Assembly (NCBI GenBank): GCA_947085255.1
Contig: CAMTVQ010000002.1
Coordinates: 68,688 to 132,687 of the forward strand
Origin: an uncultured bacterium
Lineage (GTDB): Bacteria > Bacteroidota > Bacteroidia > Sphingobacteriales > Sphingobacteriaceae
DNA length: 64,000 nucleotides
Direction: 5' to 3'
Of the stretch, positions 42,672 through 60,940 are shown piece after piece. Position 1 is the first letter of the stretch. Each line of letters starts with the position of its first letter. The position numbers and the translations under genes were made by a program. The notes beneath the pieces are model-generated. The model was not told the DNA's origin. It ran no database searches and saw only the letters and a list, made by a program, of their open reading frames with translations.

Positions 42672-43415
42672 ATGAAATTACAACACAACACCCTAACAGC
42701 CTTTGCTTTGGTAACATTGCTTTTGGTAACCGCTTGTACAGAAGACAACAATAACCCAGGAGGTAATCCTATTGTAATTCCTCTTCAAACTACGGTACAT
42801 GCTATCGTTCCACTTGGAGGCACTATCAACTTTGCAGTACTTGCTGGTTCAGCTGTTACCAATACAGGTGCAACCGTAATTACTGGCGATTTAGGACTTA
42901 GCCCTGGCACTTCGGTAGGCGGATTTCCTCCCGGCATACTCAATGGCACACAACACATTAACGATACCATTGCCACCCAAGCAAAACAGGATTTAACTAC
43001 CGCCTATAACGATGCAGCAGGAAGAACAGCTACAGATATCGTTACCCTATCGGGCAATATCGGTGGACTTACACTTACCCCAGGGCTGTATAAATCTACC
43101 TCCTCATTGTCTATCTCTTCGGGTGATGTTACGTTTGATGCAAAAGGAAATGCAAATGCTGTGTTTATTATACAAATAGCTTCTGCTTTTACCACCACAT
43201 CTGGTCGTAAAGTTATTCTTAGTGGAGGTGCGCAGGCATCCAATATTTTTTGGCAGGTAGGCAGTTCGGCAACTTTTGGTACTACCTCTGTACTTAAAGG
43301 AACAATAATGGCTATGCAGTCGATTACGTTTAATACTGGAGCAACGCTTGATGGCAAAGCACTAACTAGAACAAGCGCCGTTACCCTATCGGGCAATACC
43401 ATTGTAAAGCAGTAA
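42672..43415 (+). CDS. ice-binding-like (DUF3494) family lipoprotein, single domain
   Basis: 247 aa. Lipobox LLVTAC. FAVLAGSAVTNTGATVITGDLGLSPG ... LTPGLYKSTSSLSISSGDVTFDAKGNANAVFIIQI ... IFWQVGSSATFGTTSVLKGTIMA ... LDGKALTRTSAVTLSGNTI is the DUF3494 beta-solenoid signature. Confidence 0.8.
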   Translation: MKLQHNTLTAFALVTLLLVTACTEDNNNPGGNPIVIPLQTTVHAIVPLGGTINFAVLAGSAVTNTGATVITGDLGLSPGTSVGGFPPGILNGTQHINDTIATQAKQDLTTAYNDAAGRTATDIVTLSGNIGGLTLTPGLYKSTSSLSISSGDVTFDAKGNANAVFIIQIASAFTTTSGRKVILSGGAQASNIFWQVGSSATFGTTSVLKGTIMAMQSITFNTGATLDGKALTRTSAVTLSGNTIVKQ

Positions 43416-43428
43416 TCAGCCAACCAGT

Positions 43429-45183
43429 ATGAGCACTAAAAAAACAGAACTACCTGTGGCGGAAACTGCCCCTAAATGGGCAAAATTCCGTTCGGATATG
43501 CTTAAGTCATTTCCATCTCCGTATAAAGGCGAAAAGGATTCTTTGGCAGATGCCATAGATAAAGCCATACGCCAGTTGGATAAACTAAAATCTGAAAAAA
43601 CAGGAGGTGCTGCGTATTTAGGAACCAACTCTGCTCTTACTATTGATTTCGAAAATGTAAAAGATTCTGCTCTATTACCACAAATGAGCACCTCGGCTGC
43701 GGTAATAGAGCAAGTAATCGAGTTATTTGAAGGATTGCCTAACTGGGGACATCCGCTTACCATGTGCAACGTAAGTCCGCAAGGAAATACAGCAGCAGTA
43801 GTTGCCGCCATTTTATCCGAAATATTTGCCCCCAATATTTTGGAAGGCGAGTATGCCTGGAATATTCACAAAGCAGAATTAGAATCAGCCGGAATATTAG
43901 CAAATCTTGCTGGCTGGGAGCCTAAAAAAGCAGGAGCAATTTATACCTATGGCGGTTCGGGCTGCTGGACCTACCACTTAAAATATGCCCTTACGCGCGT
44001 GCTGCCAAATTCGCGGAATACAGGCGTACGCACAGATGCAAAAGTAATTTGTTCGCAACAAGCGCATTATACCATGCTCAACAGTACCGATTGGACCGGG
44101 TTAGGAATGGATAATATTATCCGTATCCGCACAGATATGGATACCAATGCCATGGACATGAAACATCTGGAAGACGTATTGAAAGATTGTAGAGATAAGA
44201 AAATTCCTGTTGCTTCTGTGGTGTGCACGATGGCTACTACCGATGCAAATGCATTTGATCCCGTAAAAGAAGTACGCCAGCTAATAGACAAATACCCCAA
44301 CCCCAATGGCTATGGAAAAACCTTATTGTATTGCGATTCGGTAATTGGCTGGTCGTGGATCGCTTTCAAAAACTACGACTTCAAGGCCAATCCACTTGGT
44401 TTTTCTGAAGCAGTGCTTCCGTATATCGAACAAAACTATACGGCAATAAAAGACATTTTTTATGCCGATGCTTTTGGGGTAGATTTTCATAAAACAGGCT
44501 TTTCTCCGTACATCAGCAGTGCTTTTGTGTACAAAGATGCCGCCGAGTTTGAGGGTTTACTTACACGCGAAGGGCCTGCCTATTTGCAACCCCGCTCCCC
44601 TTACAACCCAATGGATTATACCTTAGAGGTTTCGCGCGCAGCAACAGGTTCTTTGGCTGGATGGGCTACCCTTAAATTTTTTGGTCACGAAGGTTTTCAG
44701 GCTGTGTTAGGCGGCATATTGGAGAACAAAGTGTACCTCAAAAATCAGATTGCCAAAAGAAGCGATATGGTTTGTGTAAACCCATCCGACTATGGATTGG
44801 TAACCCTCTTAAGAATCTATCCTACGGGAGTACATGCACAAACACAATTTGATGGTGAGTTAAGCGACCCTACTTACCGCAAGGCCTTAATTACCCACAA
44901 CAAACTAACTCATAGTATTGGTGATACCCTATTTAACTGGTTCCGTTCGGGCAAAAAGATACAGGGTAAATGCACTCCGTATCTTAGTTTCAGCACGGGT
45001 TTTCGTACCGCAGAATACAACCGAGATATGAAAGATGGAGAAGCACTTATTTACGCCCTTAAAATATTTCCGATGAACGTACACATTACTCCCGAAGTAA
45101 TGGATCATGTATTAGACTGTATCAGTGCCGCCAGAGATGAAGTAATGGCACTGGAAGAAAGCAAATACGTGGAGAGTTTTTAA
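43429..45183 (+). CDS. PLP-dependent group II decarboxylase-like enzyme (fold-type I)
   Basis: 584 aa. TMATTDANAFDP, LYCDSVIGWSW and DFHKTGFSPY (candidate PLP lysine) resemble the TLGTT..G..D / H.DAA / N.HK motifs of group II decarboxylases. Substrate unknown. Confidence 0.55.
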   Translation: MSTKKTELPVAETAPKWAKFRSDMLKSFPSPYKGEKDSLADAIDKAIRQLDKLKSEKTGGAAYLGTNSALTIDFENVKDSALLPQMSTSAAVIEQVIELFEGLPNWGHPLTMCNVSPQGNTAAVVAAILSEIFAPNILEGEYAWNIHKAELESAGILANLAGWEPKKAGAIYTYGGSGCWTYHLKYALTRVLPNSRNTGVRTDAKVICSQQAHYTMLNSTDWTGLGMDNIIRIRTDMDTNAMDMKHLEDVLKDCRDKKIPVASVVCTMATTDANAFDPVKEVRQLIDKYPNPNGYGKTLLYCDSVIGWSWIAFKNYDFKANPLGFSEAVLPYIEQNYTAIKDIFYADAFGVDFHKTGFSPYISSAFVYKDAAEFEGLLTREGPAYLQPRSPYNPMDYTLEVSRAATGSLAGWATLKFFGHEGFQAVLGGILENKVYLKNQIAKRSDMVCVNPSDYGLVTLLRIYPTGVHAQTQFDGELSDPTYRKALITHNKLTHSIGDTLFNWFRSGKKIQGKCTPYLSFSTGFRTAEYNRDMKDGEALIYALKIFPMNVHITPEVMDHVLDCISAARDEVMALEESKYVESF

Positions 45184-45204
45184 GCTGATTTTACTGCTGC
45201 TGCT

Positions 45205-46026
45205 TTAAATCTTTTTTTGTTGTTTTGGTGGTAAAAAATTTTCTCCTGTTACTACTTTTTTTCCTGTTTGCACCTCCAATTGCACCCTTGCATCTTTGGC
45301 AATTTTGCCTCCTTTTTTGCTTGCTTTTGCATTTTCAAGTAACCCTTTAGCGTCATCTGTTTGGGCTATTTGTCGTGTTGATAGTTCAGCTAAGGCAGTA
45401 AAAATCAATTCGGCTTCGCTCATGTGGTCACGCAGGTTTTGCGATTTTAAGCCCTTCAAATCTTTGTGTTTTTTTACCGATAAGCCTGTCCATTCCTGAT
45501 GAATAATATTTGTAAGCAATGCAAATTCATCCGCTTTTTCTACACCGCTCTCTTTCCAGTAATCCGTGAGTTTGTTTCGGGTTTCTTGCCCTGTCATTCG
45601 TTGCTGAATCCATTTTTCGCTACGTCCTAGTTTTTGCCAGTTTTCTCTGGCTCTATCTATACTTTGGCTAGGGTCGGCTATTTCTTGCATACGTTCGTAG
45701 CCCACTTTGGCTAGCCATTGTTTAAAAGGTTCTGCTTTGGGTGATGGTATGGATTGGATAAGCCTAAAAATATCTTGCGCATTGCCAGCCAAAGTTTTAC
45801 GCTTCTTTCCGTTTGATAACATTTCTACCTGGGGACAATTTGTCCCTAGGTAAGCGCCGAGTTCAGTGTCTCTTTTTCTGAGTTTTTTTAAATAATCAGT
45901 TGGATTAATCGATTCTGTAAGGGCTTCTACAATATCTACAACAGAAAAATACCAAATATCTTTTTCTGCGTCGTAATACCTACGTACTTGCCTGTTTTCA
46001 AATAAAATAATGTTTTGATTACTCAT
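45205..46026 (-). CDS. BRO-N domain / DNA-damage-inducible protein D (DinD)-like protein
   Basis: 273 aa. FENRQVRRYYDAEKDIWYFSVVDIVEAL ... FRLIQSIPSPKAEPFKQWLAKVGYERMQEI is the typical DinD/Bro pattern. It is the only minus-strand gene in the island. Confidence 0.75.
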   Translation of the reverse strand: MSNQNIILFENRQVRRYYDAEKDIWYFSVVDIVEALTESINPTDYLKKLRKRDTELGAYLGTNCPQVEMLSNGKKRKTLAGNAQDIFRLIQSIPSPKAEPFKQWLAKVGYERMQEIADPSQSIDRARENWQKLGRSEKWIQQRMTGQETRNKLTDYWKESGVEKADEFALLTNIIHQEWTGLSVKKHKDLKGLKSQNLRDHMSEAELIFTALAELSTRQIAQTDDAKGLLENAKASKKGGKIAKDARVQLEVQTGKKVVTGENFLPPKQQKKI

Positions 46027-46378
46027 AGATAAATTACTTTTTAGTTCCCCTCAATTAATTTTTTGTTCCTTCTCTTTCAAATCATACAATGTTTTGTTGG
46101 CATTTCAATAGTTACTATCTCGCCAATGCTTTTAGTGCTTTTTTTGGTGTTTGCGGTACTAATTTAATCACGGTTTATTTGCTTTTCATTTGTGTTATAG
46201 AAGATATTAAGCGGTTTAATCCAATAAGATCTGTCCATTATTAAGGTGTTAAAGTTAAGTTTTTAAACCGTTTTTAGCCCAAAAATGCCATCAAATTATC
46301 AACGGTCTGAACGTCCTGCTATCCGGCTGGGCATACTCAGATGCCGCTACTCTTAGCTACCCCCAACGCTTACAATAC

Positions 46379-46414
46379 GTGATTTGTATAACTCTTTTAC
46401 AGAGTTATGTAATG
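46379..46414 (+). promoter_or_regulatory. 36-bp promoter module, copy 3
   Basis: GTGATTTGTATAACTCTTTTACAGAGTTATGTAATG. -7-like ccTTTG at 46439-46442. The ATG at 46477 is 63 nt after the module end. The ORF-track start at 46384 lies inside the module and is rejected. Confidence 0.7.
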
Positions 46415-46476
46415 TTCAAGCCCCCCAAGCAACTGACCTTTGTGACGTAGCCATGCTACACGAATTTAGCTCCACA

Positions 46477-48207
46477 ATGAACATGAAAATTCTATTCCGA
46501 TTACTTACTCTACTGCTGCTAATACATGCAAGCACCGCATTTGCACAAGCTCCGCCTCAGGCATTCAAATACCAATCTATTGTTCGTAATACGGCTGGAA
46601 ACCCACTCGTAAATACCAGCATTCAGATACGTGCCACCGTGCATGAAAGTTCAGCAACGGGCGTTGCAGAGTATCAAGAAACGCATAATGCTATTACCAA
46701 CCAATTTGGATTGATAAACCTTGAAATAGGTACAGGAACAGTGGTAAGTGGCGTATTTGCTAACATTGATTGGGGAGCAGGAACTAAATGGATGCAAATT
46801 GAAGCCGATTTTGGAACGGGATATGAGCCAATGGGAAATTCCCAATTATTGAGCGTTCCGTATGCATTGTACGCCCCCAATAGAACAGCAGGAGTAACGG
46901 GCACAACAAGTGCTACTGGAGCAAATGGAATAAATGGTGCTACTGGAGCCACCAGCGCAACAGGCAAAGGAAATACAGGAACAACAGGCAGTACCAGCGC
47001 AACGGGCATTAATGGAATTACTGGGGCTACAGGGGCTACGAGTGCCACTGGAAAAGGAAATACAGGAACGACAGGATCTACCAGTGCAACAGGCACAGAA
47101 GGAATTACTGGAGCAACAGGCAGTACCAGTGCTACTGGTATGGGAATTACTGGAACAACAGGTTCTACTAGTACAACAGGTGAAATAGGCGCTACTGGAG
47201 TAACAGGCAGTACCAGTGCTACAGGCATGGGTATTACCGGAACAACGGGTAGTACAAGTGCGACAGGTGCAGAAGGAATTACTGGAGCAACGGGCAGTAC
47301 CAGTGCTACTGGCATGGGTATTACTGGAACAACAGGTTCAACTAGTGCCACAGGTGCAGAAGGTGTTACTGGAGTAACGGGCAGTACCAGCGCTACAGGC
47401 ATGGGTATTACCGGAACAACAGGTTCAACTAGCGCCACAGGTGCAGAAGGAATTACTGGAGCAACAGGCAGTACCAGTGCTACAGGCATGGGAATTACCG
47501 GAACAACGGGTAGTACCAGCGCAACTGGTGCAGAAGGAATTACCGGAGTAACAGGCAGTACTAGTGCAACTGGAGCTGAAGGCATTACCGGAACAACGGG
47601 TTCTACCAGTGCAACTGGCGCAATAGGAATTACTGGAACAACAGGTTCTACCAGTACAACAGGTGAAATAGGCGCTACTGGAGTAACAGGTAGTACCAGC
47701 GCTACAGGTGCGATAGGAATTACTGGAGCAACCGGCATTACCAGCGCAACTGGATTACAAGGAATTACTGGAGCAACCGGCAATTCAATAAATACTTATG
47801 CAGAGTTTTATGCACTAATGCCTACCGACAATGCTGCAACTATAGCAATTGGCGCACCCGTATTATTCCCTCGAGATGGGCCAACAGATGGGGTAATTAC
47901 CCGCATTTCTGCTGGTACTTTTCAACTAACGGATGTAGGAACATACCAAGTGTTTTTTCAGGTAAGTATATCGGAAGCAGCACAACTGGTGTTGGTACTC
48001 AATGGAACTGAACTTACCAGAACAGTAGTAGGACGTGCTACGGGTACCAGTCAGGTGGTAGGTATGTCATTTATCACTACCACTACAGCAAATTCCATAT
48101 TGGCGGTACATAATCCAGCTACGAATAGCACAGCACTAACCATTACTCCTATTGCTGGAGGTGCCAATGCGGTTTCGGCTAATCTGGTTATTATGAGAAT
48201 AAAGTAA
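46477..48207 (+). CDS. secreted collagen-like (GxT triplet repeat) protein with a BclA-C / C1q-like C-terminal globular domain
   Basis: Start re-set to [24 protein letters not shown] (signal peptide). ~110-aa N-terminal domain, ~300 aa of G-x-T triplets, and a ~140-aa beta-rich C-terminal domain ([16 protein letters not shown]...LVLNGTEL...ANLVIMRIK). Confidence 0.7.
46891..47781 (+). repeat. coding triplet-repeat region with an 87-bp (29-aa) higher-order period
   Basis: The unit [30 protein letters not shown] is repeated. G-x-T runs are interrupted by SAT and by 2-residue GM steps. The antisense PVAPV ORF 46674-47783 is a shadow. Confidence 0.85.
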
Positions 48208-48232
48208 CCCATTATTTAGACACCTAAATACC

Positions 48233-48763
48233 ATGAAGATGAAATTTAAAATCAGTACCCTACTTACCGTCCTATACTTTTATGGCGCAAGCAGTTGTTT
48301 GTATGCTCAATACTTCCCTCACCATGTGATTGCCTCCTCAGGAACTTTTACAACATCAGCAAGTGGTTCCATGGCTTGGACCCTTGGTGAAATCACAATA
48401 GAAACCTGTACCTCTATTGATAATTTTCTAACGCAGGGCTTTCATCAGCCATCTGAACGCGCAACAGCAGTAGTGCCTACCGATTTTTTTATTCCAGAGG
48501 GTTTCTCGCCGAACGACGATGTGGTAAACGACTTGTTTATTATTAGAGGCATTGACAATTACCCCAAAAACACCTTTGTGGTGCTTAACCGTTGGGGTAC
48601 TAAGCTATTTGAGGCAAGTCCGTATCAAAACAATTGGGACGGAAAAGCCAAAATGGGCATGCGCCTCGGAGAAGGTGAATTGCCCACAAGTACGTATTTC
48701 TACCTGCTCGATTTGGGTGATGGTTCTGAGGTGTTTAAAGGAACTATCTATTTGATTAAATAA
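48233..48763 (+). CDS. minimal T9SS type B (gliding-motility CHU_C) C-terminal-domain protein
   Basis: 176 aa. Signal peptide, a ~70-aa N-terminal part, then FIPEGFSPNDDVVNDLFIIRGIDNYPKNTFVVLNRWGTKLFEASPYQNNWDGK...GTYFYLLDLG...KGTIYLIK, closely similar to the C-terminus of 57677-60940. Confidence 0.8.
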   Translation: MKMKFKISTLLTVLYFYGASSCLYAQYFPHHVIASSGTFTTSASGSMAWTLGEITIETCTSIDNFLTQGFHQPSERATAVVPTDFFIPEGFSPNDDVVNDLFIIRGIDNYPKNTFVVLNRWGTKLFEASPYQNNWDGKAKMGMRLGEGELPTSTYFYLLDLGDGSEVFKGTIYLIK

Positions 48764-48799
48764 GTGAATTATGTAACTATTTCCGGAAGATGTGTAAAG
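48764..48799 (+). promoter_or_regulatory. 36-bp promoter module, copy 4 (starts 1 nt after the stop codon of 48233-48763)
   Basis: GTGAATTATGTAACTATTTCCGGAAGATGTGTAAAG. -7-like tcTTTG at 48823-48826. ATG at 48862, 63 nt after the module end. Confidence 0.7.
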
Positions 48800-48861
48800 C
48801 GGCAGCATACGAAGCAAGCATCTTTGTGGGGTGAAGATTCATTCACCCTAATTACAATAAA

Positions 48862-50487
48862 ATGAACAATCCATTACGCTATATTATAGCCACAGCCATT
48901 ACACTGTTAGCTATTCCTTCTGTAAATTTTGGACAGGCTCCTAACTTAGGATCAGCTGCCAATTTTGTATTATTTTCTACCGATGGTGCTGTAAGCAACT
49001 CGGGCATTTCTCAACTTACAGGTAATGTAGGTACCAACAATGGTTCTAGTACCAATTTTGGAAACGTAAACGGTGGCATGCACGACCAGGACATTACCAG
49101 TGCGCAGTGTGCCGCAGATTTACTGATTGCTTACAATCAATTGGATGCAGCTATTCCAACTATGTTTCCTGCTCCACTTCTTGGAAATGGCGATACACTT
49201 GATGCGGCAGTATATGCTGTAGCGCAAGCAGCTACTTTAAACGGAACCCTTATTTTGGATGGAAAGGGGCAACCTGGTTCTGTATTTGTTTTTCAGATAG
49301 ATGGCTCATTTTTAACAAGCGCCAACTCAAAAATACTATTGATTAATGGAGCACAAGCATGTAATGTATTTTGGAAAATAGAAGGTTTGGTAAGCATGGC
49401 TTCTGGAACAAGTATGAAAGGCACTGTGATTGCCAACAATGCTGCCATTGAAATGAACACCACCAATACATTGGAAGGCAGATTGCTTTCTACGGCTGGT
49501 GCGGTTACGGTTGATGGCGTATTGGCATATACACCTATTGGTTGCGGAAGTGCTGTACTTACTGGTCCTACTGCTCCTGCATTGGGCAGTGCTATCTGTT
49601 ATGCACTATTTTCTTCTAACGGAGCGGTTTCTAATACTGGTGTAACGTATGTTACTGGTGATATTGGTAGCAACAACGGAAGCGCTACTGGCTTCAATCC
49701 ATTGTTTGTAACAGGCACTATTCACCCTATACCTGATGGCTCTACACAACAATGTGCTAACGATTTATTAGTTGCTTATAATTATATAAACGCATTGCCT
49801 TTCGATATCGAATTATTATATCCTGAGCAGTTTGGAAGAAACTTGGTACTTACTCCACATACCTACCGTATGAACGGTGCAGTTACTTTTACTGATAGTT
49901 TGTACCTAAATGCACAAGGCAATGCCGATGCGGTATTTGTGATACAAGTAAACGGAGCACTTTCTACCAGCACATACGCAAAAGTGATTTTGATAAACGG
50001 AGCACAAGCTAAAAACGTGTATTGGAAAATAGAAGGTGCTGTAAGCATTAATAACTATTCTATTTTTAGAGGAACAATTATTTGCAACAACGGTGCTTTG
50101 GGAGCTTTTAATACAGGAGTTGAGTTGGATGGCAGAATGCTTACCACTACAGGTGCTTTAACAACTGCAGCAGTAAATGTAGTAGCTACCATGTTGCCTG
50201 GCAATTGTGCTACAGCAAGCATTTCGTCTCCTAATGAGGATACAAAAGCGGTAACTATTTACCCAAATCCATTTAGCACCATTGCTACTATTGAGGTAAA
50301 TGATGCAGCACATATTGGACGCGTTGAGTTGGTACTATACAACGTACTGGGAGCCGAAATAACCCGCACCCGCATTACAAAACAAACGACCACCTTGCAC
50401 ACCAATGACCTACCTGCAGGCGTGTATTTTTACAAGGTAATTGATGGCGCTAAAACCATACAATCAGGAAAACTGATTGCTCAATAG
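48862..50487 (+). CDS. tandem double DUF3494 (ice-binding-like) protein with T9SS type A C-terminal sorting domain
   Basis: 541 aa with a signal peptide. Two DUF3494 units (FVLFSTDGAVSNSG...VFWKIEGLVS...LEGRLLSTAGAVTV, and YALFSSNGAVSNTG...VYWKIEGAVS...LDGRMLTTTGALT). C-terminal IYPNPFSTIATIEV...GVYFYKV tail. Confidence 0.8.
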   Translation: MNNPLRYIIATAITLLAIPSVNFGQAPNLGSAANFVLFSTDGAVSNSGISQLTGNVGTNNGSSTNFGNVNGGMHDQDITSAQCAADLLIAYNQLDAAIPTMFPAPLLGNGDTLDAAVYAVAQAATLNGTLILDGKGQPGSVFVFQIDGSFLTSANSKILLINGAQACNVFWKIEGLVSMASGTSMKGTVIANNAAIEMNTTNTLEGRLLSTAGAVTVDGVLAYTPIGCGSAVLTGPTAPALGSAICYALFSSNGAVSNTGVTYVTGDIGSNNGSATGFNPLFVTGTIHPIPDGSTQQCANDLLVAYNYINALPFDIELLYPEQFGRNLVLTPHTYRMNGAVTFTDSLYLNAQGNADAVFVIQVNGALSTSTYAKVILINGAQAKNVYWKIEGAVSINNYSIFRGTIICNNGALGAFNTGVELDGRMLTTTGALTTAAVNVVATMLPGNCATASISSPNEDTKAVTIYPNPFSTIATIEVNDAAHIGRVELVLYNVLGAEITRTRITKQTTTLHTNDLPAGVYFYKVIDGAKTIQSGKLIAQ

Positions 50488-50505
50488 TTACACAAGTTAA
50501 CTATC

Positions 50506-50540
50506 AAAAGCCCCCTTGCTTTAGGCGAGGGGGCTTTTTT
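50506..50540 (+). terminator. rho-independent terminator
   Basis: AAAAGCCCCCT (50506-50516) pairs with AGGGGGCTTTT (50528-50538). T-run to 50540. Confidence 0.8.
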
Positions 50541-50548
50541 ATGAATGT

Positions 50549-50584
50549 GTGAATAATGCAAGTAATTATCAAAGTTGTGTAACA
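50549..50584 (+). promoter_or_regulatory. 36-bp promoter module, copy 5
   Basis: GTGAATAATGCAAGTAATTATCAAAGTTGTGTAACA. TAccTTTA -7-like box at 50605-50612. Confidence 0.65.
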
Positions 50585-50671
50585 GCTACCACAATATATG
50601 AGGGTACCTTTACAAGGCATTATACCTTTTAAATTAACTCCTGATATTTTGGGATTCAACTATTGACTACC

Positions 50672-52178: not shown

Positions 52179-52367
52179 ATGAAAAATACCCTAGAGTTAC
52201 AAGGCAATTGGAACGAAATAACAGGAAAATTGAAGCAAAAATTTGCTGTACTAACAGATAGCGATTTGCTACTAGTAGAAGGAAAAGCCGATGAGTTAAT
52301 AGGCAGACTGCAAATAAAATTGGGTAAAAGTAAAGAAGAAATACAAAAGCTTATCAGCGAATTATAA
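52179..52367 (+). CDS. CsbD-family general stress protein
   Basis: 62 aa. GNWNEITGKLKQKFAVLTDSDLLLVEGKADELIGRLQIKLGKSKEE is the CsbD signature. Confidence 0.8.
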   Translation: MKNTLELQGNWNEITGKLKQKFAVLTDSDLLLVEGKADELIGRLQIKLGKSKEEIQKLISEL

Positions 52368-52403
52368 ATCTAAAAAAGCAATAACCCCTTAAAAATAACG
52401 AAC

Positions 52404-52844: not shown

Positions 52845-52866
52845 TAATTTAAAGCAATTGGTGCAG

Positions 52867-53109
52867 ATGAAAAAGCAAAGTACTTCTAACAAAAACGAGG
52901 CGAAGAAAGCCAGTTTACCCACACCTGATTTTACCAGTCCGGAAATAAATACGGACAAAACCAGACGGGATAACGATGCCGACAAAACGATTAAAAGAAG
53001 CAAATCGAAAAAATCGAAATTGGAGATAGACCCTGACTCGACAAAGATAGATACCGACGCTGATAAAACAGATCGATTGAATTTGCCAAACAACCCAAGT
53101 AAGCAATAA
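52867..53109 (+). CDS. small highly charged, probably disordered (hydrophilin-like) protein
   Basis: The ORF track starts at TTG 52858. ATG 52867 gives MKKQSTSNKNEAKK... About 80 aa dominated by K/D/T/S with repeated DxDADKT motifs and no hydrophobic core. Confidence 0.4.
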   Translation: MKKQSTSNKNEAKKASLPTPDFTSPEINTDKTRRDNDADKTIKRSKSKKSKLEIDPDSTKIDTDADKTDRLNLPNNPSKQ

Positions 53110-53135
53110 TAAAACACTGCTAGTAATATTGAGTT

Positions 53136-54611
53136 ATGGAAAAGAAAAAATTAACAACCGCAAGCGGTAGACCTTACTACGAATTCGACAATACGATGTC
53201 TGTTGGCAACAGGGGACCACTCCTGTTGCAAGACTTCCTTCTGCACGAAGACATGGCTCATTTCAACCGCGAACGTATTCCAGAACGTGTAGTACATGCA
53301 AAAGGTGCGGGTGCTTTTGGCACTTTTACAGTAACGCATGATATTACCGCCTATACCAAAGCTCACTTATTTTCTAAAATTGGTCAGCAAACACCCATTT
53401 TTGCCCGCTTTTCGCAAGTAGGTGGCGAAAAGGGAAGTGCCGATACCGAAAGGGATCCACGTGGCTTTGCCATTAAGTTTTATACCGAAGAAGGCAATTG
53501 GGATTTAGTAGGTAATAATACCCCCGTATTTTTTATTAAGGACCCTAAAAAGTTCTCTCATTTTATACATACGCAAAAGCGCGACCCAAAATCAAACTGC
53601 AAAAGCCCCACCATGATGTGGGATTTTTGGAGCCTAAATCCCGAAAGCTTGCATCAGGTAATGATTTTGATGAGCGACCGAGGCACACCCTATTCTTATC
53701 GCCACATGCATGGATTTGGAAGCCATACGTTTTCGCTCATCAACAGTAAGGAAGAACGTACTTGGGTAAAATTCCATTTTGTAACCCTACAAGGCATTAA
53801 AAACCTATTAGGTAAAGAAGCCGATGAAATGCGCGGCATAGACCCCGACCATGCACAACGTGATTTGGTAGAAGCCATCGAAAAAAATGACTTTCCGAAA
53901 TGGGCACTCAAAATTCAGGTAATGACCACCGAGCAGGCAAAAACATTTAAATGGAACCCCTTTGACCTGACTAAAATTTGGCCACATAAAGAATATCCAT
54001 TGCTGGATGTAGGCATTATGGAGCTCAACAGAATTCCCGAAAACTATTTCCGTGATGTAGAACAAGCTGCCTTTGCGCCAGCCAGTATTGTAGCAGGCAT
54101 TGGCTTTTCGCATGATAAAGTATTACAAGGCAGGTTGCTTTCTTACCCCGATGCACACCGTTATCGTTTGGGGGTAAACTACGAACAAATTCCAGTAAAC
54201 AAGTGTCCATACGTGGTTACCAATTATCAACGCGATGGACACATGCAAATGAGCGAAAACGGAGGTGCAAGCCCCAATTATCGCCCAAATAGCTTTGACG
54301 ACATTGTGGCAGAAGAACAGTACAGAGAACCTGCAATAACATTAGATTCTAACGTTGCCGATTGGTTTGACCGTAATGAAAACGACGACGACCATTACTC
54401 TCAACCAGGGGCGCTTTACCGCAATGCCATGAACGAGGACGACCGTAAAAATTTGGCACACAACATCGTGCGCTCTATGAGTGGTATTACAGGAGAAAAA
54501 AAAGACGAGATTATTAATAGAACCTTAGGTCATTTCTCTTATGTAGATGTTCGGTTAGGAAATGCAATAGCAGCAGAATTAGGTGTAAGAACTATTAACG
54601 AATCTGTTTAA
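53136..54611 (+). CDS. monofunctional heme catalase (small-subunit type)
   Basis: 491 aa. FNRERIPERVVHAKGAGAFG (distal His), RFSQVGGEKGSADTERDPRGFA, and the proximal Tyr region RLLSYPDAHRYRLG. Confidence 0.9.
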   Translation: MEKKKLTTASGRPYYEFDNTMSVGNRGPLLLQDFLLHEDMAHFNRERIPERVVHAKGAGAFGTFTVTHDITAYTKAHLFSKIGQQTPIFARFSQVGGEKGSADTERDPRGFAIKFYTEEGNWDLVGNNTPVFFIKDPKKFSHFIHTQKRDPKSNCKSPTMMWDFWSLNPESLHQVMILMSDRGTPYSYRHMHGFGSHTFSLINSKEERTWVKFHFVTLQGIKNLLGKEADEMRGIDPDHAQRDLVEAIEKNDFPKWALKIQVMTTEQAKTFKWNPFDLTKIWPHKEYPLLDVGIMELNRIPENYFRDVEQAAFAPASIVAGIGFSHDKVLQGRLLSYPDAHRYRLGVNYEQIPVNKCPYVVTNYQRDGHMQMSENGGASPNYRPNSFDDIVAEEQYREPAITLDSNVADWFDRNENDDDHYSQPGALYRNAMNEDDRKNLAHNIVRSMSGITGEKKDEIINRTLGHFSYVDVRLGNAIAAELGVRTINESV

Positions 54612-54624
54612 AACATACAGCACC

Positions 54625-54963
54625 ATGGAAAAGCACCCAACAACACCAGCAGAAAGCAACCAAAAAATGGAACGTGCTCAAAAGGTAACGGAACAGGCGC
54701 TTTATGGAAATACACGGAAAGAAAAGCTACCTCACCCAGAAACAGAAGAAATGCTGAACGCCAAGATTTTGAAAATAACGATGAAGATACGCAACGAACA
54801 CCCCGAGCTATCTAAATACATAGAAGAAATGACGGTAACAATACCCGATGAGAAGCATCCAGAAATAACACTCCAAAATTTAAGATCCTACTACAATACG
54901 TTGTGCTTGGTGGTAAATAAATATGTAATAGAACATCCAGAGAACACACCCCTAAAGAAATAA
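54625..54963 (+). CDS. hypothetical protein (112 aa)
   Basis: ORF 13 bp after the catalase gene, same strand. No recognisable motif. Confidence 0.4.
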   Translation: MEKHPTTPAESNQKMERAQKVTEQALYGNTRKEKLPHPETEEMLNAKILKITMKIRNEHPELSKYIEEMTVTIPDEKHPEITLQNLRSYYNTLCLVVNKYVIEHPENTPLKK

Positions 54964-54996
54964 AACAATAATCAGTTACACCTAATAGTTAAGAAG

Positions 54997-55689
54997 ATGA
55001 ACGTATTCCTAAAAATAAACTCCGTAAATGTTATGTTGCTTATAAGCTGCATACTCCTTTTTGGTTATATCGGCTGTTCATGGGACAATCAATCAAAAGG
55101 AAATTTACTGGACAGAACGGTAGCCGTGAGCCAACCCGCCGTGGAGCTAAAAACCAATATGCGCAAGCTATGGGAAGACCATGTAATTTGGACCCGCAAT
55201 GTAATACTGTGTTATGTTGATGGACTTCCAGGATCAGACCAATCCATAGGCCGCTTACTGCAAAACCAAGTAGATATTGGCGAGGCTATTAAACCCTATT
55301 ACGGAGAAGAAGCGGGCGAGCAATTAACCCAACTGCTGTATCCACACATTACTATTTCTATTGAGGTAATAAAAGCGGCGAAAGCCAAAAACCCAGTAGC
55401 ATTAGCAGCTGCTAGTAAACGGTGGCACCAAAACGCTAACGATATTGCCCTATTCTTAAGCGAATCTAACCCAGCATGGTCATTAGATGATATGCAAATG
55501 ATGATGGAAGATCATCTTAGATTGACAACCGATGAGGTTCAGGAACGTATCAATAAAGATTACGAAGCCGATGTGGTTGCGTATGAAGAAGCACACAAAG
55601 GCGTTTTAGCCATGGCCGATATGTTATCGGAAGGTATAATTAACCAATTCCCTGAAAAATTCGAGTTGGAAATTGCCTACTCTAAATAA
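54997..55689 (+). CDS. hypothetical all-helical protein, probable lipoprotein/secreted (230 aa)
   Basis: N-terminal hydrophobic segment ending ...GYIGCSWD. The rest is predicted helical. No recognisable catalytic motif. Confidence 0.45.
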   Translation: MNVFLKINSVNVMLLISCILLFGYIGCSWDNQSKGNLLDRTVAVSQPAVELKTNMRKLWEDHVIWTRNVILCYVDGLPGSDQSIGRLLQNQVDIGEAIKPYYGEEAGEQLTQLLYPHITISIEVIKAAKAKNPVALAAASKRWHQNANDIALFLSESNPAWSLDDMQMMMEDHLRLTTDEVQERINKDYEADVVAYEEAHKGVLAMADMLSEGIINQFPEKFELEIAYSK

Positions 55690-55701
55690 AACTATACACA
55701 C

Positions 55702-56373
55702 ATGAAACAACACATTGTAAAAGTAAAGTCGATAAGCCCCGTAACACATGATGTGTTAAAAATTGTAACGGAAAAGCCAGAAAATTTTCACTTTATTCCG
55801 GGTCAGGCAACGGGCATTTCTATTAATAAACCAGATTGGGATAAAGAGAAAAGACCTTTTACTTTTACCTGCCTACCCACTGCAGATTACTTAGAGTTCG
55901 TTATCAAAACGTACCCGCTGCACAAGGGGGTTACCAACGAGTTGTTACAACTTAAACCGAAAGACGAGTTAATTTTGCACGATGTTTTTGGAGCTATTAA
56001 CTACAAAGACGAAGGCTTATTTATTGCCGGTGGCGCAGGCATCACTCCATTTATTTCTATCTTTAGATACCTACAATCGGTAAACAAAATAGGGGACAAC
56101 AAACTGCTGTTTGCTAATAAAACAAAAGGCGACATTATTTTGGAGCAAGAATTTAAAACACTTTTGGGTAAAAACTTCATTAATATTTTAGCCGACGAAA
56201 AAGCAGATGGCTATCTACACGGGCATATTACCAAAGAATTGATTGAAAAAACTGCTGGAACTACTAATAACTCCTATTACTTATGCGGTCCGCCGCCTAT
56301 GATGGATGCCATCGAAAAACAATTAGCAGAATTAAATATAGCTCCCAGCTCCATTGTAAAAGAGACGTTTTAA
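55702..56373 (+). CDS. ferredoxin-NADP reductase-like FAD/NAD(P)-binding oxidoreductase
   Basis: 223 aa. RPFTFTC (RxYS-like FAD motif), GGAGITPFISIFR (NAD(P) motif), YLCGPPPMMDAI. Confidence 0.7.
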   Translation: MKQHIVKVKSISPVTHDVLKIVTEKPENFHFIPGQATGISINKPDWDKEKRPFTFTCLPTADYLEFVIKTYPLHKGVTNELLQLKPKDELILHDVFGAINYKDEGLFIAGGAGITPFISIFRYLQSVNKIGDNKLLFANKTKGDIILEQEFKTLLGKNFINILADEKADGYLHGHITKELIEKTAGTTNNSYYLCGPPPMMDAIEKQLAELNIAPSSIVKETF

Positions 56374-56428
56374 AAACCGTTCTCAAAAAAGCATACCAAG
56401 CATTATCAGTTCACTCACACCTCAGATA

Positions 56429-57196
56429 ATGAAACACAAACGTATTCGATTAACAGACATATCCACACTGCCTACCGAAAAAATAGGTAAAGAAAAAGCT
56501 GCCACAGAAATTGCCCTTTTGATAGAAAAGCTATCAATCATACAGAACAAACTGTATGCGCAGCAAAAACATGCGGTACTTATTGTGCTGCAAGGCATGG
56601 ATACCAGCGGAAAAGATGGCGCTGTAAAAAATGTATTCTCGGGCGTAAACCCTGCAGGCTGCAATGTAAAATCATTTAAAGTTCCTACCGCAGAAGAAGC
56701 TGCCCATCATTTTTTATGGCGCATTAGCAAAGAGTGTCCACAAAAGGGGATGATTCAAATTTTTAATCGCTCGCACTACGAAGATTTACTAGTGCCTATA
56801 GTAAACAAAACGATAGAGAATAAACAGATAAAAATACACTGCAACGAAATAAATGCATTCGAAAAAGGATTAATTCACGATAATACGATCGTGTTAAAAT
56901 TTTACTTGCATATATCTCATAACCAACAGCTGGAGCGATTGGCAGCCCGCAAAAAAGAAGAACACAAACGCTGGAAATATCAAAAGGAAGATATAGCTGC
57001 TATCAGCAAACACAAAGAATACCGCAAAGCTTACGAAACTATTTTTAAGCATTGCTCGGATGTTGCGCCTTGGCAAATAATACCCGCCGATTTAAAATGG
57101 TATAAAAACTACCGCATACTAAAAGATATTGTACACGAGCTGGAACAATACCCTATTGACTACCCAAAAATTACCGAAAAACAATTGGATCATTAA
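56429..57196 (+). CDS. polyphosphate kinase 2 (PPK2) family protein
   Basis: 255 aa. VLQGMDTSGKDGAVKNVFSGVNP (Walker A-like), FLWR, FNRSHYEDLLV. Confidence 0.8.
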   Translation: MKHKRIRLTDISTLPTEKIGKEKAATEIALLIEKLSIIQNKLYAQQKHAVLIVLQGMDTSGKDGAVKNVFSGVNPAGCNVKSFKVPTAEEAAHHFLWRISKECPQKGMIQIFNRSHYEDLLVPIVNKTIENKQIKIHCNEINAFEKGLIHDNTIVLKFYLHISHNQQLERLAARKKEEHKRWKYQKEDIAAISKHKEYRKAYETIFKHCSDVAPWQIIPADLKWYKNYRILKDIVHELEQYPIDYPKITEKQLDH

Positions 57197-57207
57197 TTGT
57201 ACGAAGC

Positions 57208-57243
57208 GTGATTTATATAACTATTTGCAACTACTATGTAATA
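57208..57243 (+). promoter_or_regulatory. 36-bp promoter module, copy 7
   Basis: GTGATTTATATAACTATTTGCAACTACTATGTAATA. TAatCTTG -7-like box at 57264-57271. The ORF-track TTG start 57269 lies in that box and is rejected. Confidence 0.65.
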
Positions 57244-57313
57244 GTTAAGTACCTCATCTACCGTAATCTTGTGTTGTCGTGAAAATTCATTCACAACAAA
57301 AAAAATAATAAAG

Positions 57314-57511
57314 ATGAAAAATATTGAAAATCACAAAAAAGCTGCAATGCATTCAGAAGAAGCTGCAAAAAATCATCATGAAGCTGCAAAGCATCACGAA
57401 GCAGGTAATCATGATAAAGCACACAACCACACGGTTAAAGCTCATGGACATTCTACCTTAGCTCACGAAGCTCAGAAAGAAGTGCTAAAAGACCAAGCAT
57501 TAACTAAGTAG
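57314..57511 (+). CDS. small histidine-rich helical protein
   Basis: 65 aa from ATG 57314: MKNIENHKKAAMHSEEAAKNHHEAAKHHEAGNHDKAHNHTVKAHGHSTLAHEAQKEVLKDQALTK. It has its own promoter module and terminator. Confidence 0.5.
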   Translation: MKNIENHKKAAMHSEEAAKNHHEAAKHHEAGNHDKAHNHTVKAHGHSTLAHEAQKEVLKDQALTK

Positions 57512-57531
57512 TCCTTTTGCTGTATTTAGTC

Positions 57532-57568
57532 AAAAAAAGCATCCCGCCTAAGGCGGGATGCTTTTTTT
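57532..57568 (+). terminator. rho-independent terminator
   Basis: GCATCCCGCC (57539-57548) pairs with GGCGGGATGC (57552-57561). TAA loop, A-run before and a T7 run after. Confidence 0.85.
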
Positions 57569-57577
57569 ATGGAATGT

Positions 57578-57613
57578 GTGAATCATGTAACTTATTAAAG
57601 GAGTTGTGTAACA
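57578..57613 (+). promoter_or_regulatory. 36-bp promoter module, copy 8
   Basis: GTGAATCATGTAACTTATTAAAGGAGTTGTGTAACA. -7-like acTTTA at 57638-57641. ATG at 57677, 64 nt after the module end. Confidence 0.7.
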
Positions 57614-57676
57614 CATACCCCTACCAATGGTAGCAACTTTACATCGTGAAAACTTAATAACTAAAACTCAACTCAC

Positions 57677-60600
57677 ATGAAAATTAAACTACTCCATACC
57701 CTACTAATAGCCATAGGCTTATTATGTATTCCGAAGGTAAACTTCGGACAAGCGGTAGCACCTACATTAGGTACTGCAGCTAATTTTGCAATTTTCTCAT
57801 CTGCCGGCGCCGTAACCAGCTCCAGCAGTTTGTTATACCTCACACACGTTACAGGTAATATAGGTTCACAGCCTGCATCCACCTCTGGTTTTGGTAATGT
57901 GGACGGTGTGCTGTACCAAGGTGGTACTACGTTCGGTACGGGTACAACCGATGTTCAAGCTACCTATGCACAACTAAATGGACTAACACCCACCAATGCT
58001 TTAGCAACTCCTTTTGGAGCTGGTGTAGTGCTTGTAGAAGGTGTTTATGCGATATCAAGTGCATCACAACTTACCGGGGATTTGATACTGGATGCCCAAG
58101 GAGACGCCGACGCAGTATTCATTTTTCAACTGGGTGGCGCATTTAACACCGCCGCCAATACAAAAGTAAAATTGGTAAACGGCGCCTTAGCCTGTAATGT
58201 ATTTTGGAAAGTAGAAGGAGCCGTTACGATGGCTGCCGGAACCAGCATGAAAGGAACCATTATTGCCAACAACGATTTTATCAGCATGGCAGCCAACGAT
58301 ACCTTAGAAGGAAGAGCACTTTCTTTAAATGGAGCAGTAAGCATGAACCAAACGGTTGTTTACCTACCAAAAGGCTGCAATAGTCCGGTACTTACAGGAC
58401 CAATAGCACCAACACTTGGTTCTTCAGAATGCTACGGCATATTTACTTCCGACGGTCCTGTTACCGATGACGGTGCATCACGCGTAGTTGGCGATATTGG
58501 AACAAACGGTCCTGGTGATTTAACCATTGGCTATAATCCATTATTCGTAACGGGTACGATTCACCCTATAGCAGATGCTTCTACAGCACAGTGTGCTACA
58601 GACGTGGGCGTAGCTTATAGTTATGTAAATACGTTAGCAGAAGATATTATTTTACTACGCCCCGATTTGTTTGGGCATGATTTGGTGCTTACCCCACATA
58701 CCTACCGTATGAATGGTGCCGTAACCTTTACCGATTCGGTATTCCTTAATGGAGAAGGTAATCCAGATGCCGTATTTATCATCAAGGTGTATGGTGCTTT
58801 TAATACCAATGTAGGTTCAAAAGTAGTATTGACTAACGGAACACAAGCAAAAAATGTATACTGGATGATTAATGGTGCTGTTGATATAAACATCAACTCC
58901 ATTTTTAATGGTTCATTTATTAGTGCAGGTGCCATCGATTTACAAACTGGCGTACGCATGAACGGAAGAGCATTTACTACCGTTGGTGCCATTAATACCT
59001 ATGCCATTATTACTACATTACCTTCTGGATCGGCCGGCGCAGCTGGACCTATATCGGGCGACGACTCGGTGTGCAGCGGACAAACAGGAGTTATTTACTC
59101 TGTAGCTCCAATTGCTGGCGCAACCGACTATAGCTGGACAGTACCAATTGGTGCAACCATCACTTCAAGCGATACTACAAACACTATAGCCGTAACTTTT
59201 GGTCCACTTGCTATTAGCGGAAACGTAACCGTGCAAGGTACGGGTACGTGTAGCAATGGTTCTACATCAACATTTACAGTTATTGTAAACCAACCACCAA
59301 CAGTAAACTTTGTACCCAACCAAACGGTGTGCAACAACGAACAAACAATGCCAGTAATTTTTACAGGCACTATGCCAGGAACAACCTATAGCTGGACAAA
59401 TACCGACAGTACTATCGGATTGGCAGCAAACGGAACTGGAAACATCAATCCGTTTACCGCAATAAACACAACGGCACTTACCATTATTGCAACAATAACC
59501 GTAACACCTACTGCCAACGGATGCGATGGAGCTGATACTAGTTTTACCATCACCGTAAACCCAACACCGGTGGTTGATAGCGTAACAGACCAAGCGGTGT
59601 GTAACAACTCGCAAACAGCAGCAGTACTATTTACTGGTACCGTTGCAGGCACTACTTACAACTGGACCAATAGTGATACCACTATAGGATTAGCAGCAAG
59701 CGGAAGTGGAGATATTAATCCTTTTACAGCCACAAACACAACTGCAAATGCCGTTATAGCAACTATAACCGTAACACCTACTGCCAATGGTTGTGCTGGA
59801 ACAGATACTTCTTTTACCATAACCGTAAACCCAACACCAACAGTAAATAGTGTGGCCAGCCAAACGGTATGTGCCAACACAACCACAACAGCCATCGCTT
59901 TTGGTGGTAGTGTTGCAGGTGCTACGTACAACTGGACAAACGACAATACCTCAATAGGATTGGCTGCAAGTGGCACTGGAACGATTGCCGCCTTTATAGG
60001 CAGCAACACCACATTAGTAGCTAATACCGCTAACATAACCGTAACGCCTACAGCAAACACCTGTACTGGTGCAGCTACCAGTTTTACGATTACAGTAGAC
60101 CCAGCACCTATGTTGGATACCGTAGCCGACCAAACCTTGTGCAACACAGCAACAACTGCACCCATCGTATTTAGTGGAGCAGGCGTAGGCGCTACCTATA
60201 GCTGGACAAACGATAATACCTCTATAGGCTTGGCGGCAAGCGGAAACGGAGACATTAATTCGTTTACAGCAACCAATACTGGCTCAGTTGCCGCCATAGC
60301 AACTATTATTGTTATATCACCAGCACCAGGCTGTGATGGAACAACACTTTTTACGATAACCGTAAACCCAACACCAACAACCAACCCCGTAGGCAACCAA
60401 ACGGTATGCACCAATACAGCAACAACACCAATCACTTTTAGCGGCGCTGTTGCGGGTACTACCTACAACTGGACCAATAACAATACGTCTATCGGATTGG
60501 CTGCTGCTGGTAATGGAGATATTGCTGCCTTTACTGCAACCAATACAGGTGTAAATGTAGTTACAGCAACCATAACTGTAACACCTACCGAAACCACTAC

Positions 60601-60940
60601 TGGATGTGCCGGAAGCGCTACCGCCTTTACTATTGCAGTAGACCCTTGCCCTACTACCGACTTTCATATTCCAGAAGGTTTTTCTCCGAATGCCGATGGT
60701 ATAAACGATTTGTTTATCGTGAGAGGAATTCAGAACTACCCTGCCAATACATTCGAAGTATTTAATCGTTGGGGTGATAAATTATTTGGAGCAGCACCTT
60801 ACCAAAACACATGGGATGGTAAAGCTACAACAGGAGTACGTTTGGGTGATAATGAATTGCCTACAGGCACGTATTTCTACATACTCGACTTAGGTAATAA
60901 CTCACCTATTTATAAAGGAACTATTTATCTAAACAGGTAA
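57677..60940 (+). CDS. large surface protein: tandem double DUF3494 (ice-binding-like) head, PKD/Ig-like repeats, and a T9SS type B (CHU_C) C-terminal domain
   Basis: 1087 aa with a signal peptide. Its two DUF3494 units are close paralogs of 48862-50487 (LVLTPHTYRMNGAVTFTDS shared). One PKD-like unit plus five ~89-aa tandem repeats (...TYxWTNxxTSIGLAAxGxGxI..FTAxNT...ATITVTPTANGC.G...FTITVNP). C-terminal FHIPEGFSPNADGINDLFIVRG...GTIYLNR. Confidence 0.8.
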   Translation: MKIKLLHTLLIAIGLLCIPKVNFGQAVAPTLGTAANFAIFSSAGAVTSSSSLLYLTHVTGNIGSQPASTSGFGNVDGVLYQGGTTFGTGTTDVQATYAQLNGLTPTNALATPFGAGVVLVEGVYAISSASQLTGDLILDAQGDADAVFIFQLGGAFNTAANTKVKLVNGALACNVFWKVEGAVTMAAGTSMKGTIIANNDFISMAANDTLEGRALSLNGAVSMNQTVVYLPKGCNSPVLTGPIAPTLGSSECYGIFTSDGPVTDDGASRVVGDIGTNGPGDLTIGYNPLFVTGTIHPIADASTAQCATDVGVAYSYVNTLAEDIILLRPDLFGHDLVLTPHTYRMNGAVTFTDSVFLNGEGNPDAVFIIKVYGAFNTNVGSKVVLTNGTQAKNVYWMINGAVDININSIFNGSFISAGAIDLQTGVRMNGRAFTTVGAINTYAIITTLPSGSAGAAGPISGDDSVCSGQTGVIYSVAPIAGATDYSWTVPIGATITSSDTTNTIAVTFGPLAISGNVTVQGTGTCSNGSTSTFTVIVNQPPTVNFVPNQTVCNNEQTMPVIFTGTMPGTTYSWTNTDSTIGLAANGTGNINPFTAINTTALTIIATITVTPTANGCDGADTSFTITVNPTPVVDSVTDQAVCNNSQTAAVLFTGTVAGTTYNWTNSDTTIGLAASGSGDINPFTATNTTANAVIATITVTPTANGCAGTDTSFTITVNPTPTVNSVASQTVCANTTTTAIAFGGSVAGATYNWTNDNTSIGLAASGTGTIAAFIGSNTTLVANTANITVTPTANTCTGAATSFTITVDPAPMLDTVADQTLCNTATTAPIVFSGAGVGATYSWTNDNTSIGLAASGNGDINSFTATNTGSVAAIATIIVISPAPGCDGTTLFTITVNPTPTTNPVGNQTVCTNTATTPITFSGAVAGTTYNWTNNNTSIGLAAAGNGDIAAFTATNTGVNVVTATITVTPTETTTGCAGSATAFTIAVDPCPTTDFHIPEGFSPNADGINDLFIVRGIQNYPANTFEVFNRWGDKLFGAAPYQNTWDGKATTGVRLGDNELPTGTYFYILDLGNNSPIYKGTIYLNR

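Follow-up and report, generated by a model that had tools for sequence, protein, structure and literature searches.

Three ice-binding-like genes at one locus

The window analysed here is a stretch of 64,000 nucleotides from contig CAMTVQ010000002.1 of an uncultured member of the Sphingobacteriaceae (Bacteroidota; assembly GCA_947085255.1), whose genome measures 2.54 Mb and is 99.9% complete, and our subject is three genes on its + strand that encode ice-binding-like proteins of the DUF3494 family. Gene 1 (42672-43415; 247 aa), gene 2 (48862-50487; 541 aa) and gene 3 (57677-60940; 1087 aa) are all open reading frames. The Pfam model PF11999 (Ice_binding, DUF3494), with a gathering score of 28.7 bits, finds one domain in gene 1 (220.8 bits), two in gene 2 (257.5 bits) and two in gene 3 (227.6 bits), and a six-frame search of the whole genome returned no DUF3494 units beyond these five. 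An earlier sequence-only reading had assigned five units in three genes to this family and had seen three different export or anchoring signals on them; the Pfam scores, the translations and the tail profiles bear out both claims, with a lipobox on gene 1, a type A tail of the system for type IX secretion (T9SS) on gene 2, and a T9SS type B tail behind PKD-like spacers on gene 3. We consider it likely that the genes belong to three old, widely distributed orthologous groups of true type-1 (DUF3494) ice-binding proteins, that each product is sent to a different place at the cell surface, and that a promoter design is shared among them.

A foreign origin of this region was considered and rejected. 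The G+C content ranges from 0.37 to 0.45 across the region, compared with approximately 0.385 genome-wide, and the gene neighbourhood recurs in distant relatives, so that an old conserved locus fits better than an island.

Gene 1 is a lipoprotein with an export-signal-like motif

The product of gene 1 consists of a signal peptide (aa 1-21), a predicted lipidated cysteine (Cys22; 42735-42737) followed by T-E-D, and the DUF3494 domain (aa 56-244). Its translated N-terminus, MKLQHNTLTAFALVTLLLVTA-C22, ends in a standard lipobox (L-V-T-A-C22), and a regular expression recovers the lipobox cysteine in 112 of the 120 closest homologs, with at least 5 of the 8 misses also showing the cysteine by eye. 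Processing by signal peptidase II and lipidation at Cys22 would follow. The protein is a member of a very large group, with 7986 matches in our search, and its closest known counterpart is EfcIBP (PDB 6EIO), from a bacterial consortium of the Antarctic ciliate Euplotes focardii, which likewise has a single DUF3494 domain and is of the same size. The solved EfcIBP construct lacks the N-terminus, whereas a lipobox and an export-signal-like motif stand at the start of gene 1 and of nearly all the 120 homologs closest to it; we found no open-access paper that discusses the lipobox of this EfcIBP-like family.

In Bacteroidota, lipoproteins are flipped to the cell surface by an export signal that is optimal as C-X-K-(D/E)2 and that minimally requires a polar or positive residue followed by two acidic residues at positions +2 to +5; related signals of the S-D-D type are functional as well (PMC5080379). 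The C-T-E-D of gene 1 satisfies the minimal rule, and the residues after the cysteine in its homologs are mostly K-K-D-D/K/E (more than 60% of the 120). Because T-E-D fits this signal, the product most likely resides on the outer face of the outer membrane, held by a short tether. Against this, T-E-D is a variant of the majority K-K-D-D and departs from the optimum, and of the two signals only the lipobox is certain, which leaves room for a product that faces the periplasm and protects that compartment. Given the fit to the minimal signal, the functional S-D-D-type signals and the composition of the homologs, we regard a periplasmic location as unlikely, and surface exposure as the better reading.

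Gene 1 does not stand alone. A gene for a universal stress protein (Usp; 42194-42637, + strand, 147 aa; PF00582, 92.6 bits) precedes it, with the start of gene 1 lying 34 nt past the Usp stop and a scan of that gap finding no terminator. Only 13 nt after gene 1 follows a gene (43429-45183, + strand, 584 aa) for a protein resembling pyridoxal phosphate (PLP) enzymes, with a weak pyridoxal-decarboxylase-like match. The pairing of gene 1 with the PLP-enzyme-like gene is conserved in two other loci (L109 and L110), and gene 1 is probably co-transcribed with both of its neighbours. On other metagenome contigs, the ice-binding lipoprotein and the PLP-enzyme-like gene are accompanied by lipid-transport genes of the MlaE/MlaF/MlaD type and a LEA_2 protein (L109, 8001-14452; L110, 2949-9400; L108, 6945-9309), a hint that the island may have to do with the outer membrane and with desiccation. 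Downstream of the unit, a gene for a BRO-N domain protein (45205-46026) lies on the - strand.

Genes 2 and 3 carry the two classes of T9SS tail

Gene 2 encodes a signal peptide ending in ..NFG|QA, two DUF3494 domains (A, aa 25-232; B, aa 233-450) and a type A tail (aa 466-541; 50257-50484) that scores 44.1 bits with PF18962 (cut-off 27) and 47.7 bits with TIGR04183 (cut-off 23). The predicted cleavage (..NFG|QAP) aligns with the first residue of mature IBPv, the ice-binding protein of Flavobacteriaceae bacterium 3519-10 (PDB 5UYT; PMC5673226), and the correspondence continues through both DUF3494 domains, all four disulfide cysteines and the ice-binding rows to the last 75-88 or so residues at the C-terminus. 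In the IBPv structure, the last 88 residues gave no density and were left unexplained (PMC5673226). The homologous stretch of gene 2 scores as a T9SS type A sorting domain, and the IBPv tail can now be read in the same way. Over 3600 proteins match gene 2, of which the top 120 are all 67-74% identical and have the same architecture.

Of the T9SS components searched, SprA (2574 bits), GldM (367 bits) and the PorU sortase (1283 bits) are all encoded in the genome with scores above their cut-offs, as are six PorP/SprF paralogs. Type A tails are recognised by the PorV shuttle, and in Porphyromonas gingivalis type A cargo becomes linked to anionic lipopolysaccharide (PMC9143113, PMC12618676). The gene 2 product would cross the inner membrane via Sec, be cleaved before the glutamine, and then, by analogy with other type A cargo, be handed to PorV and trimmed by PorU, to end up either free in the medium, as is reported for IBPv (PMC5673226), or linked to lipid. 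The gene 2 unit is closed by a terminator (hairpin plus T-run; 50506-50541, + strand).

Two neighbours upstream of gene 2 deserve mention. A collagen-triple-helix-repeat protein (46384-48207), with DNA repeats of 87 and 45 nt, is followed by a 176-aa protein (48233-48763) in which a signal peptide and a short N-terminal stretch precede a CHU_C type B tail (79.8 bits); the DNA encoding this tail is 71% identical to that of the gene 3 tail (repeat family D8).

The product of gene 3 is larger and has a different build. Behind a signal peptide that again ends in ..NFG|QA come a tandem DUF3494 head (aa 26-452; 57752-59032), six immunoglobulin (Ig)/PKD-like domains (aa 456-990; 59042-60646) and a CHU_C tail (aa 997-1087; 60665-60937), the tail scoring 86.5 bits with PF13585 (cut-off 27) and 50.3 bits with TIGR04131 (cut-off 35). 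The spacers match PKD_6/PKD_5, and five of the six stalk domains are 90-aa (270-nt) repeats. After IBPv, the best structural matches, which concern the stalk, are chains of Ig domains, including a Bacteroidota grappling-hook filament protein. Since the sorting tail is C-terminal, the ice-binding head would form the distal tip of the six-domain stalk, which we estimate at approximately 20-25 nm if extended.

Only 43 nt past the stop codon of gene 3, and without an intervening hairpin, starts a gene for a PorP/SprF-family outer-membrane protein (60983-61924, + strand, 313 aa; PF11751, 286.5 bits), followed by a gene for a PorE-like protein with TPR, PD40, carboxypeptidase-regulatory-like and OmpA domains (61944-63899, + strand, 651 aa). 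Among 12 other loci that have a type B tail, 8 keep this order (type B tail, PorP/SprF, PorE-like) and 3 of the remaining 4 are truncated by the end of the locus; the order also occurs in L108, the locus of the closest gene 3 homolog. Type B cargo needs cognate PorP/SprF shuttles that are often genetically linked to it; F. johnsoniae SprF binds SprB, and a complex of PorE, PorP and a type B cargo is established for PG1035-PorP-PorE (PMC9143113, PMC12618676). Gene 3 shares with these systems the linkage and the order of CHU_C cargo, PorP/SprF-like barrel and PorE-like TPR/PD40/OmpA protein. It differs from them in its passenger, which is an ice-binding head and not a motility adhesin. The PorP/SprF-like protein is thus the probable cognate shuttle and anchor of gene 3, whose type B tail would dock on this barrel and on the PorE-like wall-binding protein.

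SfIBP_1 of Shewanella frigidimarina (PDB 6BG8) offers a second comparison, as it is also cell-tethered and combines a DUF3494 unit with tandem beta-sandwich domains. It has been proposed to be an ice adhesin (Vance et al. 2018, as cited in PMC11645318), and the Ig-like domains of tethered DUF3494 proteins are suspected of a role in ice adhesion (PMC11645318). Unlike SfIBP_1, whose host is a proteobacterium without a T9SS, gene 3 places two DUF3494 domains at the N-terminal tip and has PKD-like spacers, a T9SS type B tail, and PorP/SprF-like and PorE-like partners of its own. From its architecture, gene 3 would be a stalked, cell-bound ice binder and possibly an ice adhesin.

A shared promoter module and a candidate regulator

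The three genes are linked by a 39-nt promoter module with the consensus TnnGTGAnTnATGTAACTnnTTnnnAnAGnTGTGTAAnA. It is built from a pair of direct repeats with a spacing of 21 bp (GTGAWTnATGTAAC ... TGTGTAAC), with the second repeat at the -33 position and a TAnnTTTG-like (CTTTG-type) -7 box approximately 20 nt further downstream. The window contains nine copies, all on the + strand, while shuffled sequences give an expectation of 0.37 copies and none of 100 shuffles reaches nine. Genome-wide there are 16 copies, 12 of which fall between 100 and 150 kb along the contig that holds the window (C2).

One copy lies directly upstream of gene 2 (48761-48799, + strand; -7-like box CATCTTTG about 20 nt downstream) and another directly upstream of gene 3 (57575-57613, + strand), where it is preceded by a terminator hairpin (~57535-57568). 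A third (42093-42131, + strand; terminator hairpin just upstream at 42052-42078) heads the unit of Usp, gene 1 and the PLP-enzyme-like gene. The earlier claim that all three genes sit behind the module consequently holds directly for genes 2 and 3, but gene 1 is reached only as the second gene of a module-headed unit, after Usp. The distance from the start of the module to the ATG is nearly constant, at 101 nt for Usp (42093 to 42194), 101 nt for gene 2 (48761 to 48862) and 102 nt for gene 3 (57575 to 57677). As terminator hairpins precede the copies at 42093, 50546 and 57575, the units are insulated from one another; the copy at 50546 begins right behind the terminator of gene 2.

The association between module and DUF3494 genes extends well beyond this genome. 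DUF3494 genes have the module directly upstream in the relatives G031, G027, G037, G024, G021 and G015, which include other families of the same class, and the lipoprotein gene has it upstream in L109 and L110. Among 74 IBPv-like loci from different species, 49 have a module no more than 330 nt upstream of the match, compared with 7 of 74 control windows.

A candidate activator is encoded in the window itself, as a 189-aa AraC/XylS-type helix-turn-helix protein (31805-32374, + strand; Pfam HTH_18/HTH_AraC). A module copy precedes its gene (31712-31750, + strand), which suggests autoregulation. Homologs of this protein are encoded beside modules or DUF3494 genes in G012, G015, G031, G027, G024, G021, G022 and G035, and also in L108; G021 and G024 have an AraC paralog first, followed by the module and then the DUF3494 gene. 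The module has the layout of the sites bound by AraC at araI1-araI2 and by XylS at Pm, i.e., direct-repeat half-sites 21 bp apart with the proximal one overlapping the -35/-33 region, and the observed repeat geometry, fixed -7 box and regulator-module adjacency across genomes resemble class II activation as in AraC/XylS, a putative assignment. Differences from those regulators are the short length of the protein (189 aa), its uncharacterised N-terminal half, and a promoter with a Bacteroidota -7 box. The protein at 31805 would most likely activate the module promoters (approximately 16 in the genome), which mostly drive stress genes.

Weighing against an activator site, the module could be the promoter of an alternative sigma factor of the extracytoplasmic function (ECF) type, operated by a sigma/anti-sigma switch. 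Conserved blocks whose spacing and distance to the start codon are both fixed are what such a promoter would show, and ECF sigma factors often run stress regulons in other phyla. The two blocks are, however, direct repeats 21 bp apart, and a normal Bacteroidota -7 box 20 nt past the second repeat fits a class II activator working on a housekeeping-sigma promoter. Moreover, the genes found next to modules in many genomes are of the AraC type and not sigma genes, and they have the module in front of them as well. An ECF promoter is in our view rather improbable, and we favour the AraC-type activator.

Besides the ice-binding genes, the module drives genes for a catalase, PPK2, a bestrophin-like protein, a Cys-rich four-helix protein, YtxH and DUF5670-type small proteins, and OmpA-family proteins. 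We propose, tentatively and at somewhat less than even odds, that ice-binding proteins belong to the core, conserved outputs of a stress regulon found throughout the Bacteroidota, in which an AraC-type activator fed by a multi-receiver phosphorelay switches on lipid-tethered, secreted and stalked ice binders together with catalase, Usp, PPK2, YtxH and bestrophin-like genes and outer-membrane proteins. The regulator and the signal are what we infer here. No description of a regulon of this kind was found in the open-access papers searched.

Several further module copies were noted. The collagen-like gene upstream of gene 2 has its own copy at 46376, and since its listed TTG start (46384) overlaps that copy, the real start must be further downstream. 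Apart from the BRO-N gene described above, which interrupts them, the module-driven units run on the + strand. The gene 3 unit is immediately preceded by a gene (57314-57511) for a His- and Lys-rich protein of 65 aa that has no Pfam match; this gene has its own module (57205) and its own terminator (~57535-57568). Seven copies lie outside the window, on C2 beyond 132649 (the window-end copy, at 63962 in the window) up to 152000, and at C4:174367, C9:102768, C10:18119 and C14:16896; they head genes for small lipoproteins, YtxH, a DUF5670-like membrane peptide, a Cys-rich four-helix protein, an OmpA protein with thrombospondin-type repeats and an AI-2E-family transporter.

Homology to active ice-binding proteins

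Gene 1 aligns with EfcIBP without gaps (E = 1e-96), with 160 of 221 residues identical (72%; 74% over the domain), and EfcIBP is reportedly an experimentally active ice-binding protein. The alignment of gene 2 with IBPv runs from end to end, including the tail (E = 3e-165), with 55% of residues identical overall and 59% within the head. The host secretes IBPv, which shows a thermal hysteresis of approximately 2.2 °C at 53 µM and whose ice-binding rows have been defined by mutagenesis (PMC5673226). These identities of 72-74% and 59% to experimentally active proteins make the ice-binding assignment firmer than motif recognition could. They also settle the fold of genes 1 and 2, at 72% and 59% identity to solved structures, as a right-handed triangular beta-solenoid with a long flanking alpha-helix.

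For gene 3, an AlphaFold2 model (mean predicted local distance difference test score, pLDDT, 79; most of the head above 85) finds 5UYT as its best match in the PDB, with a target-normalised template modelling (TM) score of 0.96, a root mean square deviation of 1.4 Å and 47% identity, and it also matches 6EIO, ColAFP (3WP9), FfIBP and TisAFP (3VN3) with TM scores of 0.82-0.88. On overlay with 5UYT, the model has the beta-solenoid and the flanking alpha-helix of the DUF3494 fold, in agreement with the family assignment of the sequence-only reading. Searching with the gene 3 head gave 1451 matches.

The mutationally defined rows are conserved to different degrees in the two tandem proteins. In domain A, the IBPv row (A41, A212, A193, L174, A147) corresponds to A43, A214, A195, L176 and S149 in gene 2 and to A45, A220, F201, A182 and A155 in gene 3; in domain B, the IBPv row (A253, G429, A410, A391, A364) corresponds to A255, A432, A412, A393 and A366 in gene 2 and to P261, A438, A419, A401 and A374 in gene 3. 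The domain B row of gene 2 is therefore alanine at all five positions, and its domain A row (A, A, A, L, S) resembles that of IBPv. Gene 3 has small residues at four of five positions in each domain, the exceptions being F201 and P261. Of the four disulfide cysteines, both proteins keep three, and gene 2 has the fourth as well (C449).

A number of points weigh against ice binding by all three proteins. In gene 3, the bulky Phe201 lies in the row of the N-terminal domain and Pro261 in that of the second domain, and the fourth disulfide cysteine is absent; because of these features, the ice activity of gene 3 may be weaker or altered. None of the three reaches the 400-bit cut-off of the NCBIfam equivalog NF045625 (IBP_CFB), with scores of 138, 98.2 and 91.1 bits, and by this measure they are relatives of the IBP_CFB group outside its membership. 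DUF3494 proteins have also been reported from non-freezing habitats and could have substrates other than ice (PMC11645318). Finally, close gene 2 homologs come from groundwater and aquifers, lakes and soils as well as from glaciers and permafrost.

Such observations would suit DUF3494 domains that bind some other ordered surface, such as a mineral or a polysaccharide, within a locus devoted to general adhesion or a stress-surface programme, and the co-regulated catalase, Usp, PPK2, YtxH and bestrophin-like genes do point to general stress and not specifically to cold. We nevertheless think this improbable in light of the identity to proteins with measured ice activity, the conservation of the mutationally defined ice-binding rows, and the many homologs from glacier-fed streams, permafrost palsa and Antarctic dry valleys. 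Ice activity, like final localisation, is what we infer for these proteins, and ice remains the preferred ligand.

Origin of the gene 2 and gene 3 heads

The tandem heads of genes 2 and 3 are colinear and 53-54% identical. Compared domain by domain, the N-terminal pair is 49% and the C-terminal pair 59% identical, while cross pairs reach 32-43%, and gene 1 is 28-36% identical to each of the four tandem domains. This pairing of N- with N-terminal and C- with C-terminal domains indicates that the tandem fusion predates the split between genes 2 and 3. In a tree of 151 heads, gene 3 belongs to a 13-member clade made up entirely of type B proteins (99% local support), its nearest relative being 71% identical, whereas gene 2 groups with 541-aa proteins that are all of type A, its nearest relative being 80% identical. 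Both kinds of gene co-occur in other genomes (L046, L064, L091 and G012).

The sequence-only reading had taken long strings shared by the two heads as a sign of recent paralogy. The strings do exist, but LVLTPHTY and its neighbouring residues are invariant columns family-wide and as such are no evidence of recency, and each head has closer orthologs elsewhere. A recent duplication within this genome followed by a T9SS tail swap, for which the colinear heads, the identical strings and the distance of 7 kb on one strand could be cited, was therefore rejected as extremely improbable, being contradicted by the identities, the well-supported type B clade and the co-occurrence of both gene types in other genomes.

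The coupling of one passenger to both tail classes, also claimed earlier, stands insofar as both tails are found on such heads, but it is not special to this genome, as it is seen across large metagenomic families. Tails were classed by the higher score of iterated jackhmmer type A and type B profiles (166 proteins matched both), and the classes agreed with precomputed Pfam calls in all cases checked (28/28 type A and 75/75 type B). Mapped on the tree, the tail label changes between A and B at least six times, with at least three changes forced by well-supported branches, compared with approximately 48 changes for shuffled labels. Tail type is thus conserved yet repeatedly swapped within the family, and this is a general property, not an event of this genome.

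In L046, L064 and L091 (~540-5600 each), the operon of type B tail, PorP/SprF and PorE-like genes lies immediately upstream of an IBPv-like type A gene, so that both kinds of ice-binding gene are direct neighbours; in our window 7 kb separates them and their order is reversed. The relatives G012, G015, G021, G022 and G024 (L097, L100, L105-L107) encode a further class of single-domain DUF3494 proteins of 468-692 aa, of which several have a lipobox (..SGCKKD.., ..GSCRKD..) and several lie behind the module; no member is present in the window.

Implications

Domain content, homology to tested proteins, the presence of secretion machinery and the conserved linkage of promoter with gene and of tail with partner are matters of observation, and on these grounds each of the three proteins is an ordinary member of a large named family with a solved and assayed relative. 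The classes of T9SS tail, the lipoprotein export signal and tethered DUF3494 ice adhesins with Ig-like domains were likewise established before. We found no paper in the searchable open-access literature that treats DUF3494 together with type IX secretion, and the explicit reading of the secretion routes and the link to a regulon seem to be undescribed in the open literature, although the tails already carry labels from annotation pipelines. The papers that could be searched say little about the ways in which bacteria control and place their ice-binding proteins.

Neither a recent duplication nor a unique tail swap is what gives the locus its value, and the case cautions that shared motifs are no proof of recent duplication. 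What it offers is one organism that places the same fold at three distances from the cell, using three well-understood sorting signals and one promoter design, a design that recurs before DUF3494 genes in many uncultured Bacteroidota. The conserved link to a stress regulon is the most interesting part. If the regulon reading is true, protection from freezing would be wired into a general dormancy or freeze-desiccation programme, apart from the cold-shock response, and the stalked type B form would act as an ice adhesin, docking on a PorP/PorE anchor of its own.

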